Positions 18,296-20,407 of a stretch of DNA of 64,000 bases are shown one piece after another. The stretch covers positions 32,001 through 96,000 of the IMG/VR virus record IMGVR_UViG_3300045988_160394; one strand, 5' to 3'. The first letter of the stretch is position 1. Every line of letters starts with the position of its first letter. Below the pieces are notes generated by a model. It was not told the origin of the DNA and ran no database searches. It worked only from the letters and a program-made list of their open reading frames with translations. The DNA comes from a virus. The position numbers were made by a program, and so were the translations under genes.

Positions 18296-19636
18296 ATGGC
18301 AACTAAATGTATAAAAATAGCTTTTGATTTTGCAAAAGATAATACTATAGATAAAAAAGATTTTTATAAAGAATTAAGAGATATAAATTATAAAACATGG
18401 TTGGCTTGTAATAGAGCTATTACTTACTTTTATACTAACGATATGCAGAATATGGTTCAAAAAGATATTGGTATTCCTAAACAAGATGATAAAGAACTGT
18501 TTGGAAAAAGTTTCGGAGCTTGGGTAGAAAACAGAATGAATGAGTTAATGGAAGGATGTTTATCTACTAATGTAGCTCAAACAAGACAATTTGTTGCTAA
18601 TAGATATGCTCAAGATAAAAAGAATGGGCTATTTAAAGGTCAAGTATCTTTAACTCAATTTAAAAAAGATATACCAATAATAGTTCATAATAAAGCTTAT
18701 AATATTATAGATACTGATAAAGGATTAGGTGTAGAAGTAAGTCTTTTTAATAAAGAAAAACAGAAAGAATTAAACGTTAAAAAGATTAAATTAGTATTTC
18801 CTAAATTAGATGGATCTTCTAAAGCTACGCTAATTAAAATAATGGATAAAACTTATAAACAAGGTTCAATACAAATAACTTATAATGAAAGAAAAAGAAA
18901 ATGGATGATGATTATAAGTTATACTTTTGAAGCTATTAAAGATGAAACATTAAATGAAGATATTACATTAGGAATAGATTTAGGTATAGTTAATGTGGCT
19001 ACTATGTCTTTATATGATTCTAAAAATAATAGTTTTAATAGCATAGCTTGGAAAGAAAGAATTATACCAGGGGATGAGCTTATACATTATAGACAAAAGA
19101 TAGAAGCTAGAAGAAAATCTTTATATATAGCTACTAAATGGTCTAGTGATAATGCTTCAGGCCATGGTTATAAAAGAAAAACAAAGACAGCTAATAAAAT
19201 AAGTGATAAGTATTCAAGATTTAGAGATACTTATAATCATAAGATATCTAGATATATAGTAGATTTAGCTATTAAACATAAAGCTAAGAATATACAAATG
19301 GAAGACTTAAGTGGTTTTTCAGATTATCAATCAGAAAGTTTATTAGCTAACTGGAGTTACTACGATCTTCAACAAAAGATAAAATATAAAGCCGAAGGAA
19401 AAGGTATTAATGTTATATTCATTAATCCACAATATACTTCTAAAAGATGTAGTAAATGTGGTAATATACACGAAGAGAATAGAGATTGTAAAAACAATCA
19501 GGCTAAATTCGAATGTATAGTATGCGGTCATAAAGAGAATGCAGATATAAATGCTAGTAAGAATATAGCTATACCACAAATTGATACTGTAATAAAAGAA
19601 TATATAAAAGATAAAAAAGAGGCTGCTATAAGTTAG
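18296..19636 (+). CDS. cas12f: miniature type V effector, Cas12f(Cas14)/TnpB-like RuvC nuclease (446 aa)
   Basis: RuvC-I GIDLGI (D codon 18977), GHGYKRK basic lid segment, RuvC-II IQMEDL (E codon 19301), NPQYTSKRCSKCG...CIVCG zinc ribbon, RuvC-III ENADINASKNIA (D codon 19544); repeat arrays downstream. Confidence 0.8.
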   Translation: MATKCIKIAFDFAKDNTIDKKDFYKELRDINYKTWLACNRAITYFYTNDMQNMVQKDIGIPKQDDKELFGKSFGAWVENRMNELMEGCLSTNVAQTRQFVANRYAQDKKNGLFKGQVSLTQFKKDIPIIVHNKAYNIIDTDKGLGVEVSLFNKEKQKELNVKKIKLVFPKLDGSSKATLIKIMDKTYKQGSIQITYNERKRKWMMIISYTFEAIKDETLNEDITLGIDLGIVNVATMSLYDSKNNSFNSIAWKERIIPGDELIHYRQKIEARRKSLYIATKWSSDNASGHGYKRKTKTANKISDKYSRFRDTYNHKISRYIVDLAIKHKAKNIQMEDLSGFSDYQSESLLANWSYYDLQQKIKYKAEGKGINVIFINPQYTSKRCSKCGNIHEENRDCKNNQAKFECIVCGHKENADINASKNIAIPQIDTVIKEYIKDKKEAAIS

Positions 19637-19720
19637 TAGTCTCTTTAGCTATATTTAAAGACCGTAGGGCAGGAAGAACTATATCTAAAAATGGAATGAT
19701 AGAATTGGTTATAAAATAAA

Positions 19721-19888
19721 GGTTGATTTACCAGCCTAAAGATGAGATAGTGATTTCTATTAGAAATAATACTCTCATTAAACGCTCCAACTAGATTGGT
19801 AAAAGGCTAGTGCAAAACAATAATATTATTGGGCGTGTACTAGGATATAGCTTTTGTTAATATTTAATAAAATGATTTAAATATAAGG
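19721..19888 (+). ncRNA. tracrRNA-like scaffold, copy A (ends uncertain)
   Basis: Paralogous to 20085..20277 and 35531..35625 with compensatory stem changes; 3' part carries anti-repeats (19851..19868, 19875..19883) complementary to the adjacent repeat. Confidence 0.6.
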
Positions 19889-20018
19889 GTTTAATATTAA
19901 CATAAGATGTATTTAAATTTAAACAATCTATGTGTAGGACAGTTCCTGTACTAAGTTTAATATTAACATAGGATGTATTTAAATGTAGAATCAATATTAG
20001 CATAAGGTATATTTTAAT
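19889..20018 (+). CRISPR. mini CRISPR array A: two 30-nt repeats, one 36-nt spacer, degenerate terminal repeat
   Basis: R1 19889..19918 and R2 19955..19984 (gtttaatattaacata[a/g]gatgtatttaaat, 29/30 identical); spacer 19919..19954; degenerate copy 19989..20018 (about 22/30). Confidence 0.65.
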
Positions 20019-20084
20019 TTACTCCAAGTAGTTCATTATAAAAGCATATTTAATGACTTTCAATATAATTTATAAAAAGATAAA

Positions 20085-20277
20085 GGGTGTTTTACCATCC
20101 TAAAAGTGAGAAAGTGATTTTGGAAACGGCTTAAATGATAAGCTTAAAATAAATTTAATACTCTCACTAAACGCTCCAATAAAGTTATTGGTAAAAAGCT
20201 AGTGCAAAATGATTAAATTCAGGCGTGTACTAGAATACATTTTTTATTAAAGTAAACGGATTGGCTTAAATATACTG
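20085..20277 (+). ncRNA. tracrRNA-like scaffold, copy B (ends uncertain)
   Basis: Collinear with copy A, larger insert in stem 2; anti-repeats 20244..20257 and 20265..20272 match the B-type repeat. Confidence 0.55.
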
Positions 20278-20338
20278 GTTGAACTTTAACAAGAATTGTA
20301 TTTAAAGATGTGCTCTTTTGGCACTAATGTATTTAAAG
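20278..20338 (+). CRISPR. mini array B: one diverged 30-nt repeat, about 18-nt spacer-like segment, partial repeat
   Basis: gttgaactttaacaagaattgtatttaaag (21/30 to repeat A) at 20278..20307; repeat 3' end tgtatttaaag recurs at 20328..20338. Confidence 0.45.
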
Positions 20339-20383
20339 AAATATTAATTAAGATTTGATATTGATATATATGTTAAAATAAAT

Positions 20384-20407
20384 ACTCTTCCCAATTGAGG
20401 GAAGAGT
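20384..20407 (+). terminator. strong 9-bp stem-loop closing the CRISPR locus (no clear T-tract)
   Basis: actcttccc-aattga-gggaagagt. Confidence 0.4.

Follow-up and report, generated by a model that had tools for sequence, protein, structure and literature searches.

A probable type V-F1 CRISPR-Cas12f1 system of a jumbo phage with tandem tracrRNA-like modules and a candidate guide RNA gene between two tRNA genes

The DNA analysed here, referred to as the window, is a stretch of 64,000 nucleotides (nt) from a virus (IMG/VR record IMGVR_UViG_3300045988_160394, positions 32,001 to 96,000), in which positions 18296-20407 hold a gene for a Cas12f-like protein followed by non-coding DNA. Very probably, the gene and its RNAs make up a complete type V-F1 CRISPR-Cas12f1 (CRISPR, short palindromic repeats that are clustered and regularly interspaced) system of a jumbo phage, which lacks adaptation genes and whose array and fixed guides would be directed against rival elements and rival alleles. 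The effector and the missing adaptation genes are those of the known subtype V-F1; what is new here is that the phage has several home-made guide RNAs. The arrangement of these RNAs is of more interest than the cas12f gene itself. Related loci are referred to by our L numbers where they have to be told apart.

The effector protein

18296-19636, plus strand: cas12f1, type V-F1 (formerly V-U3) effector of 446 residues, identified by profile, structure and alignment matches

The 446-residue open reading frame (ORF) with TnpB/Cas12f architecture that the initial annotation had described exists, and all the quoted motifs were found in it, namely GIDLGI, SGHGYKRKTK, FRDTYNHKISRYIVDLA, IQMEDL, NWSYYDLQQKI and a tail of the form CxxC...CxxC...NADINASKNIAIP. 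The PADLOC profiles Cas12u3 (E 4e-119) and Cas12f (E 2e-118) cover the ORF from end to end, and the Pfam family Cas12f1-like_TNB (PF07282) matches it with an E value of 1e-21. The top solved structures are those of AsCas12f1 (8j12, 8j1j, 8j3r, 8dzj and 7wju; E ~5e-69, residues 9-438), which bears out the block-for-block likeness to Cas12f1 put forward in the initial annotation. When the 446-residue query was aligned with 14 homologues at 53-96% identity, the RuvC residues D228 (GIDLG), E336 (QMEDL) and D417 (NADIN) and the zinc-ribbon cysteines C385, C388, C407 and C410 were all invariant, and the RuvC and zinc motifs align to identical motifs in AsCas12f1. In a structural report (PMC12255294), AsCas12f1, Un1Cas12f1 and SpCas12f1 are described as homodimers on one guide RNA of ~200 nt.

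About 600 homologues were found at E <= 1e-30, among them proteins of Clostridium botulinum and C. tetani. Those of C. perfringens are ~76% identical and are encoded on plasmid-like records of ~50 kb that carry phage capsid and tail genes. Public records annotate the homologues as 'transposase' or TnpB, and it might be asked whether the gene belongs to an IS200/IS605-type TnpB transposon with an omega RNA. The superfamily-level NCBIfam model guided_TnpB is indeed passed (160 bits against a cut-off of 100), and Pfam OrfB_IS605 is passed marginally (31.4 against 30.5 bits). However, the specific models IS200_TnpB (NF038281; 66.8 bits against 425) and IS607_TnpB (38.5 against 350) fail, and the best full-length matches are the Cas12f profiles and AsCas12f1. 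The gene is present in a single copy in the 64 kb, no Y1 transposase occurs among the best 25 Pfam families matched in the window ORFs, and tracrRNA-like genes and CRISPR repeats lie downstream in place of a right end, although no explicit search for transposon ends was made. The transposon reading is thus hardly credible. By profile and structure-sequence matches rather than by a phylogeny, we assign the protein to Cas12f1 of the AsCas12f1 clade and not to IS605 TnpB; the profile classification that had been proposed as a check likewise gave full-length Cas12f matches, with IS200_TnpB far below its cut-off.

None of the 85 window ORFs matched cas1, cas2 or cas4 in PADLOC, where only Cas12 families occur among the best 25 (down to E 3e-7); as every PADLOC family and most of the Pfam families matched a single ORF, each scan amounts in effect to the 25 strongest families, so that a very weak match could escape. 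Within this range, the earlier statement that the 64 kb hold neither these genes nor a tnpA is correct. That an adaptation-less Cas12f is borne by a phage is likewise true here, but its novelty was overstated, the absence of an adaptation module being a defining feature of V-U3/V-F1, which occurs mainly in Clostridia and Bacilli (PMC7229846), and V-U 'Cas14a' genes having been described on phages and phage-inducible chromosomal island (PICI) elements of Clostridium novyi sensu lato (PMC8473940). Type V-F systems are also enriched on plasmids (PMC11656645).

Two tracrRNA-like modules and their repeats

Behind the stop codon of cas12f lies a non-coding stretch of ~790 bases (19637-20425) that reaches up to the next gene at 20427. 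The initial annotation described it as repeat/spacer units; for the most part it consists of two genes resembling trans-activating CRISPR RNAs (tracrRNAs), in a duplicated module, and these as well as a distant guide gene had been overlooked. The two homologous modules are ~77% identical, and each has an element of 160-185 nt followed by repeats. The features are as follows.

19637-19715, plus strand: degenerate stretch after the stop codon, then the ATGGAATGATAG leader preceding the tracr unit
19716-19877, plus strand: tracrRNA-like gene of module 1 (class A), covariance model score 167.5 bits
19889-20017, plus strand: mini-array 1, with a repeat (19889-19918), a spacer (19919-19954), a repeat (19955-19984) and a degenerate terminal repeat (19989-20017)
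20080-20265, plus strand: tracrRNA-like gene of module 2 (class A, stem 2 longer by 25 nt), covariance model score 200.5 bits
20278-20408, plus strand: module 2 tail, with a full repeat (20278-20307), a fixed segment of 20 nt, ATGTGCTCTTTTGGCACTAA (20308-20327), a partial repeat of 12 nt (20328-20339) and a hairpin (20383-20408)

A covariance model built from eight copies of the tracr-like element in five loci finds the element downstream of cas12f homologues in at least ten other loci. It was found in Sarcina ventriculi, Clostridium ihumii and several metagenome-assembled genomes, and an IMG/VR contig has it together with a five-repeat array. In 23 model hits, 96.3% of the cells at 28 base pairs hold standard pairs and both sides have changed in 19 of the 28; none of 500 shuffles reaches the observed pairing, and slid controls are paired at 28-39%, a large margin, although the alignment was fitted to the model and therefore leans towards the structure. 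The frequent G-U pairs are compatible with a plus-strand RNA only. Complementarity links the 3′ end of each element with the following repeat, over the 5′ two-thirds of that repeat, and the duplexes come to about -16 kcal/mol. In module 1, 83% complementarity is seen between the tracr 3′ end (19845-19867) and positions 19890-19912 of the repeat, and the duplex of anti-repeat and repeat is predicted at -15.9 kcal/mol, compared with -7.1 ± 2.1 kcal/mol for shuffled repeats; in module 2, the anti-repeat at 20234-20253 pairs at 85% with the repeat at 20283-20302. Because of the covariation, the strand-specific G-U pairs and the anti-repeat complementarity, we identify both elements as predicted tracrRNA genes, placed as in the characterised V-F1 loci. 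An arrangement of orthogonal modules, in which each tracrRNA would fit only its own repeat, was considered and ruled out, as anti-repeat 1 pairs with repeat 2 just as with repeat 1.

The stretch at 19637-19715 has two motifs of 11 nt that resemble the 3′ end of the repeat, TATATTTAAAG (19650-19660) and TATATCTAAAA (19680-19690), 19 nt apart. In L037, a ATGGAATGATA motif links the end of array 1 to tracr 2, and for this reason the stretch looks like debris of the tandem duplication of the module. The same motif in L037, as the junction between an array end and the next class A tracr, also rules out positions 19670-19700 as the remnant of a guide of class B, the second class of RNA described below. 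Mini-repeats of 11-12 nt that comprise only the repeat 3′ end are found 19-20 nt apart at 19650-19690 and at 20297-20339, a distance close to the size of a mature guide.

The three full repeats of 30 nt (19889-19918, 19955-19984 and 20278-20307) score 42.2-42.7 bits against the Rfam CRISPR-DR3 gathering score of 41, and the earlier statement that repeats follow the gene instead of an IS200/605 right end is confirmed by these three copies. Rfam places the matches on the minus strand, whereas the RNA evidence shows that the plus strand is the functional one. Only one bona fide variable spacer exists in the window, TTAAACAATCTATGTGTAGGACAGTTCCTGTACTAA, with 36 nt at 19919-19954, where the initial annotation spoke of spacers in the plural. 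Nor are the spacers markedly richer in GC than the phage, as had been claimed: the spacer has 33% GC and the window 27%, a difference without significance, since among the 36-mers of the window 25% equal or exceed the spacer. The fixed 20 nt of module 2 are kept with one mismatch in L006 and are therefore not a variable spacer. In the hairpin at 20383-20408, it is the minus strand that has the T-run, the plus strand carrying an A-rich one; the hairpin reads as a minus-strand or bidirectional terminator, although all genes are on the plus strand.

Where the window has its spacer, L006, a phage whose Cas12f is 99% identical, carries a different one, and L037 has a third; L001, with a 96% identical Cas12f, has about six repeats, which are fairly degenerate. 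Because spacers differ between phages whose Cas12f proteins are 96-99% identical, the array appears to turn over although the phage has no adaptation genes. A possible source is the host. By eye, the window repeats are identical at 25-27 of 30 positions to the type I-B repeat of Clostridium autoethanogenum, GTTGAACCTCAACATGAGATGTATTTAAAT, which is used with spacers of 35-38 bp (PMC4022347). The combination of I-B-like repeats with an I-B spacer length suggests that Cas1-Cas2-Cas4 machinery of a host type I-B system may fill the arrays in trans.

It is also conceivable that the cassette is a decaying, non-functional remnant of a CRISPR-Cas12f cassette from a Clostridium phage-plasmid. The single spacer, the degenerate repeat at 19989-20017, the partial repeats with the mini-repeat debris and the fairly degenerate repeats of L001 would agree with decay. 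On the other hand, the ORF is intact, its catalytic and zinc-binding residues are invariant across homologues of 53-96% identity, both tracr genes keep their structure and the spacers differ between near-identical phages, so that decay is a very improbable explanation.

A candidate guide RNA gene within the tRNA cluster

A further RNA gene is found 16 kb from cas12f, tightly packed between two tRNA genes.

35444-35520, plus strand: tRNA-Met (ARAGORN), directly upstream of the class B RNA
35521-35663, plus strand: delocalised class B single-guide-like RNA gene, covariance model score 43.3 bits
35664-35738, plus strand: tRNA-Asn (ARAGORN), directly downstream of the guide segment

The covariance match (35526-35649) has an E value of 2e-6 over all loci searched and of 3e-8 locally, and the RNA aligns with the class B tracrRNAs of C. 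perfringens phage-plasmids. Its scaffold (~35526-35637) ends with ...CTAT-loop-ATAGTAGAAG, in which anti-repeat and repeat are joined in a short fused hairpin, AACTAT-TTTAT-ATAGT. The last scaffold bases are AGAAG, and a guide segment of 26 nt (35638-35663, AGTCCCTTATCTTCCTCTATTGTTAT) then runs up to the first base of tRNA-Asn. Possibly, RNase Z cleavage at tRNA-Met defines the 5′ end of the RNA and RNase P cleavage at tRNA-Asn its 3′ end.

The element is kept at the same place in L029, L030, L032, L033 and L040, and is identical in a 263-kb ENA contig and a gut-metagenome contig. A metagenome scan for the class B core gave two relevant loci (L039 and L040) and four chance matches. In L030, L032 and L033, where the neighbouring protein is 73-87% identical, the substitutions in the element preserve its pairs; these three have a different guide at the same 26-nt spacing to tRNA-Asn.

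Two relatives, L031 and L034, are without the element and have instead tRNA-Ser(TGA), ~350-445 nt of DNA and tRNA-Ser(GCT). The guide of the window corresponds to the last 19 nt of this tRNA-Ser(GCT) plus the 7-nt spacer before tRNA-Asn: positions 35638-35661 match L034 1733-1756 and L031 596-619 at 23 of the 24 positions compared, and the junction to tRNA-Asn is the same in L034 and the window. The flank in the intact alleles is GGTTCA or GGTTCG, with the T-loop sequence TTCA or TTCG, and in the carrier it is TAGAAG. Since the intact alleles have TTCA/TTCG where the carrier has GAAG, the scaffold sits where the target had its protospacer-adjacent motif (PAM) side.

Two observations were made beside this site. 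The ~350-445 nt between the two tRNA-Ser genes (L031 170-520, L034 1215-1658) are conserved and apparently non-coding, with no ORF called. At 35340-35430 of the window, a tRNA-like sequence (GCTCAGCCAGGTTAGAGCAC...GGGTTCAAATCCCAC) with a long insert was not called by ARAGORN; its equivalent in L034 is a called tRNA-Thr(TGT) of 89 nt, and the window copy may be an intron-containing or a decaying tRNA.

Natural single guides in related elements

In the C. perfringens phage-plasmids, the cas12f stop codon is directly followed by a relative of the tracrRNA that is shorter, lacking two of the class A hairpins, and this is the RNA that we call class B. It is unfused in L028 (an IMG/VR contig) and L039 (a metagenome contig), where it has its own array with 36-nt repeats (GTTAAAGTACACTTTAGTTTAAAGGTATAGTAGAAC) and 30-nt spacers. 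In L002-L005 (5337-5515), a 39-nt deletion relative to L028 joins the class B anti-repeat to the 3′ end of the repeat, and what results is a natural single-guide RNA made up of one hairpin, a guide of 24 nt and a terminator. Fusion has also affected class A: in L037 (1451-1610), another relative of the jumbo phage, module 2 is fused through GAATACA-TTAT-TGTATTTAAAG and continues into the guide CTTTGGGGTATCAGTTCAAAAATTA. By comparison of these loci, anti-repeat and repeat appear to have been fused into single guides at least three separate times in the lineage.

In relatives that lack the cassette, the guide of the fused L002-L005 RNA has a match at 24 of 24 positions, after TTCT, at the junction where the minor-capsid gene meets the gene that follows (NZ_CP148596.1 5966-5989, equal to L010 7201-7224). 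This junction is the exact place at which the cas12f cassette is inserted, and the copy of the targeted gene start in L002-L005 themselves differs at several positions. All seven matched guides of these C. perfringens elements have their targets within ~4 kb of the cassette site, the same guide in different loci being counted separately.

In the jumbo phage, the cassette site lies between a NADAR gene and a gene for a protein of 188 residues, and it is variable, for L035 and L036 have an ORF of 214 residues there (2845-3489) instead of the cassette. Since no guide matches this cas12f-less allele, homing of the cassette has no support in the jumbo phage, in contrast to the C. perfringens phage-plasmids. 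We do not call the 214-residue ORF of L035 a homing endonuclease, its NUMOD-like match being marginal (27.1 against 27 bits).

Targets of spacers and their flanks

Spacers of the relatives have the following targets.

L006 spacer, allelic to that of the window: C. perfringens plasmid pCPCPN17a_1, 34/35 positions, 5′ flank TTTA
Spacer of a C. perfringens phage-plasmid homologue: DUF6673 gene of a related phage-plasmid, 100%, 5′ flank TTCA
Second C. perfringens phage-plasmid spacer: tape-measure genes of related 40-51-kb plasmids and of phage LPCPA58, 91%, 5′ flank TTCA
Two spacers of a class B array: related C. perfringens phage-plasmids, 29/30 and 27/30 positions, 5′ flank CCA

The DUF6673 target plasmid that was inspected carries no cas12f. 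Together with the tRNA-cluster guide, the protospacers of the relatives give eight 5′ flanks, TTA, TCA, TCA, TCT, TCA/TCG, TCA, CCA and CCA, and the background frequencies are 0.19 for NTYN and 0.08 for TTYN. On the spacer-sense strand, all of these flanks are pyrimidine-rich and are found 5′ of the match, where a type V system would have them, and this fixes the guide orientation independently. These matches lend indirect support to the view that the variable spacers serve in competition between mobile elements. Of the targeting of foreign DNA put forward in the initial annotation, the part that stands is the one backed by relatives, whose spacers match C. perfringens plasmids and phage-plasmids; the spacer of the window itself found no match in phages, plasmids, IMG/VR or the JGI metagenomes, and the argument from GC content fails.

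Proposed mechanism

We propose that Cas12f1, a dimer in the characterised enzymes, would bind either the duplex of tracrRNA and CRISPR RNA (crRNA) or a fused RNA, would recognise a 5′ pyrimidine-rich PAM and would, in a co-infected cell, cut double-stranded DNA belonging to competing mobile elements. The variable array spacers would aim at plasmids and phage-plasmids. In contrast, the fixed guides would match the alternative allele of the very place at which the guide gene or the cassette sits: the tRNA-cluster guide of the window would aim at the tRNA-Ser(GCT) gene whose place the scaffold has taken, and the fused C. perfringens guide at the site where the cas12f cassette inserts, in its empty state. 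A cut in the rival allele would either exclude the competitor or convert it by recombination (homing), while the carrier would be safe because the scaffold stands in place of the PAM. Expression, processing by RNase Z and RNase P, cleavage, and exclusion or gene conversion of rivals are predicted steps, and the window Cas12f would have to accept the class B scaffold, as the relatives lead us to expect. A more far-reaching version of the proposal is that the phage Cas12f has partly reverted to the selfish logic of TnpB, with fused guides, one of them embedded between tRNAs and matured by RNase P and RNase Z, driving exclusion or homing as a natural RNA-guided gene drive among phages and phage-plasmids, and with an array refilled by host type I-B machinery. 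We put this version forward tentatively, as a possibility that falls somewhat short of an even chance.

Several observations weigh against these proposals. The spacer of the window found no match in the window, INPHARED, PLSDB, IMG/VR or the JGI metagenomes, a search that took in phages, plasmids, IMG/VR and the JGI metagenomes and left out C. perfringens chromosomes; the check suggested by the initial annotation, against metagenomes and the genome itself, thus came back empty for the window and the JGI metagenomes. Module 2 lacks a variable spacer, and for its fixed segment of 20 nt no target was found in the window, the 37 fetched loci, phages, plasmids or IMG/VR. Nor did the same search give targets for the mini-repeat unit, for what follows the partial repeat or for the sequence trailing array 1. 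The class A modules are not orthogonal, anti-repeat 1 pairing equally well with repeat 2 (-16.2 kcal/mol). The guides of L030, L032 and L033 match the D-arm part of tRNA-Ser(GCT), flanked by CTCA, imperfectly, with 3-4 mismatches in the 24 positions compared. A gene for a homing endonuclease with GIY-YIG and NUMOD1 domains (34340-34966) is directly upstream of the tRNA cluster and is also present in L029 and L034, and this adjoining endonuclease alone could drive the polymorphism of the cluster. Finally, we infer the use of the class B RNA by the window Cas12f only from C. perfringens loci that carry both classes beside one cas12f, and we infer homing from geometry alone.

Some of these points would fit an ordinary phage CRISPR system for warfare between elements, with the tRNA-cluster element and the fused guides as recombination debris and the GIY-YIG endonuclease as the driver of the polymorphism. 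tRNA clusters of large phages are recombination hot spots, the endonuclease ORF lies directly upstream of the cluster and occurs in L034 too, and the guides of L030, L032 and L033 fit tRNA-Ser imperfectly. Debris would hardly be expected, however, to keep the class B scaffold and its pairs in four diverged relatives (neighbouring protein 73-100% identical), to have, with either version of the guide, exactly 26 nt of guide segment before tRNA-Asn, or to replace precisely the PAM side of a protospacer that has TTCA/TTCG in the intact alleles. The same logic is moreover seen independently at the cas12f cassette of the C. perfringens phage-plasmids. We consider this explanation rather unlikely.

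Alternatively, the fixed-guide RNAs (module 2, the single-guide RNA of the tRNA cluster and the fused guides) might be regulators or decoys, comparable to the auto-repression by Cas9 tracr-L or to phage vsgRNAs that sequester or redirect a Cas nuclease. Repression or sequestration of Cas9 by natural phage single-guide RNAs has been reported (bioRxiv 10.64898/2026.06.01.729453), and the 20-nt segment of module 2 is conserved and not variable. Against this, no PAM-proximal seed match of at least 12 nt exists elsewhere in the window, the region upstream of cas12f included, and the fused C. perfringens guide (24/24) and the tRNA guide of the window (23/24) match rival alleles rather than giving partial promoter matches. 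A regulatory or decoy role is therefore improbable. Autoregulation through a partial guide match near the cas12f promoter was ruled out, the lone 11-nt matches in the window being kilobases away from cas12f.

The carrier phage and its gene content

All 85 non-overlapping ORFs kept in the window are on the plus strand, and the GC content is 27%. The window encodes a NAD-dependent DNA ligase, both subunits of topoisomerase II, a fusion of RNA ligase and polynucleotide kinase (PNK), homing endonucleases and a four-tRNA cluster. Independent assemblies of 257, 263 and 264 kb contain DNA that is nearly identical. No close relative of the phage was found in INPHARED; the RNA ligase protein has its nearest matches in Firmicutes phages (44% identity), and the closest Cas12f-like genes in isolated phages, those of Bacillus phage Mgbh1 and Alicyclobacillus phage MMB025, are 33% identical. 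From its gene content and the assembly lengths, the carrier is taken to be an uncharacterised jumbo phage of ~260 kb. Its host probably belongs to the C. perfringens group, because spacers of the relatives match C. perfringens plasmids and phage-plasmids.

Other genes may be mentioned briefly. An ORF of 876 residues (28258-30888) has a GroEL-like chaperonin in its C-terminal part (residues 419-874); its N-terminal P-loop region matches terminase, DnaC and primase families, and it may be a fusion or an intein-containing gene. The Pfam and PADLOC scans of the window also gave a Tad2-like anti-Thoeris domain, a PemK/MazF-like toxin, ClpP, ferritin, two RecA-family matches and HNH-type homing endonuclease matches, as well as a nicotinamide mononucleotide (NMN) transporter together with an AAA_28 (NadR-like) protein and a NADAR domain, a set that points to a theme of NAD salvage or ADP-ribose.

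The Cas12f-like 'transposase-like protein' gp53 of Bacillus phage Mgbh1 (L044, KU665491.1, 1792-3093) is 33.6% identical to the window protein, and two direct repeats of 37 nt, 66 nt apart, lie just upstream of it (1598-1700). This has the appearance of a mini CRISPR-Cas12f locus that was left unannotated in an isolated phage.

Comparison with known systems

In our literature searches on Cas12f, we found no report of tandem tracr modules, recurrent natural single guides, a tRNA-embedded guide gene or allele-matching guides. The nearest known systems are AsCas12f1 and the other V-F1 loci (PMC7229846), with which the window shares an effector of ~420-450 residues, the same domain order with a full-length alignment (E 5e-69), a tracrRNA between gene and array and the lack of adaptation genes; published V-F1 PAMs are 5′ T- or C-rich, and the flanks deduced here are pyrimidine-rich. 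Unlike in these loci, the carrier is a jumbo phage, the tracr/array modules are two in tandem, a fused guide gene lies at a distance and the repeats are of the clostridial I-B family. The 'Cas14a' loci of C. novyi sensu lato (PMC8473940) are similar in that they are on clostridial mobile elements, with Cas12f-like genes beside short arrays and without cas1 or cas2, but no tracrRNAs, fused guides or allele-matching guides were reported for them, and their repeats are other sequences. Huge phages likewise have a hypercompact type V effector in Cas-phi (Cas12j), whose arrays are short and which comes without adaptation genes; it differs in needing no tracrRNA and belongs to another Cas12 branch, in agreement with its weak match here (7odf, E 2.5e-5).

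The Cas12f of the window adds a further member to a well-studied family of compact genome editors. Its practical interest is modest: the orthologue has 446 residues, comes from an AT-rich phage and has native RNAs that are defined and a PAM that is probably TTYN/YYN. For the supply of spacers to V-F1 systems without adaptation genes, the type I-B-like repeats provide a concrete hypothesis. The loci compared here are sequence snapshots of the natural and repeated fusion of crRNA and tracrRNA, an evolutionary question that can be tested with close relatives. In the work on TranC, RNA splitting has reportedly been proposed as the step that turned the omega RNAs of TnpB into a tracrRNA and a crRNA, and the fusion seen here would be the reverse. 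A natural crRNA-tracrRNA fusion on a phage is also known from the vsgRNAs of Cas9 (bioRxiv 10.64898/2026.06.01.729453), but these hijack the Cas9 of the host as an anti-CRISPR, whereas here the Cas12f is the phage's own and the guides have full-length targets in rival elements.

For the guide gene in the tRNA cluster, two parallels may be drawn. CRISPR-associated transposons home next to tRNA genes by means of delocalised (atypical) crRNAs (PMC11656645). The likeness is that the guide RNA is not encoded in the array and that its target is fixed, self-serving and linked to a tRNA locus; those transposons, however, use nuclease-dead effectors for transposition, whereas here the RuvC residues are kept and the guide matches the tRNA gene itself. 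The other parallel is man-made. In engineered polycistronic tRNA-gRNA (guide RNA) constructs, flanking tRNAs provide for processing by RNase P and RNase Z, and the layout of the tRNA cluster is similar; a guide RNA gene between tRNAs is thus the layout that engineers invented for multiplexed guide expression.

In its geometry, the guide gene follows TnpB and its omega RNA. In IS200/IS605 elements, the guide of the omega RNA is read from the flank of the element, and cutting of the empty site keeps or spreads the element. Similarly, the tRNA-cluster scaffold abuts native flanking DNA that serves as its guide, and the PAM (or target-adjacent motif, TAM) is displaced in the carrier while the intact allele keeps both PAM and target. 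The differences are that no TnpA was found among the best 25 Pfam families, that the RNA gene is 16 kb away from the nuclease gene, that the nuclease is of the CRISPR-associated Cas12f clade and that spread would here need recombination between co-infecting phages. These likenesses suggest that a phage CRISPR system may act as an RNA-guided device for homing or allele exclusion, which would link free-standing homing endonucleases, TnpB and CRISPR.

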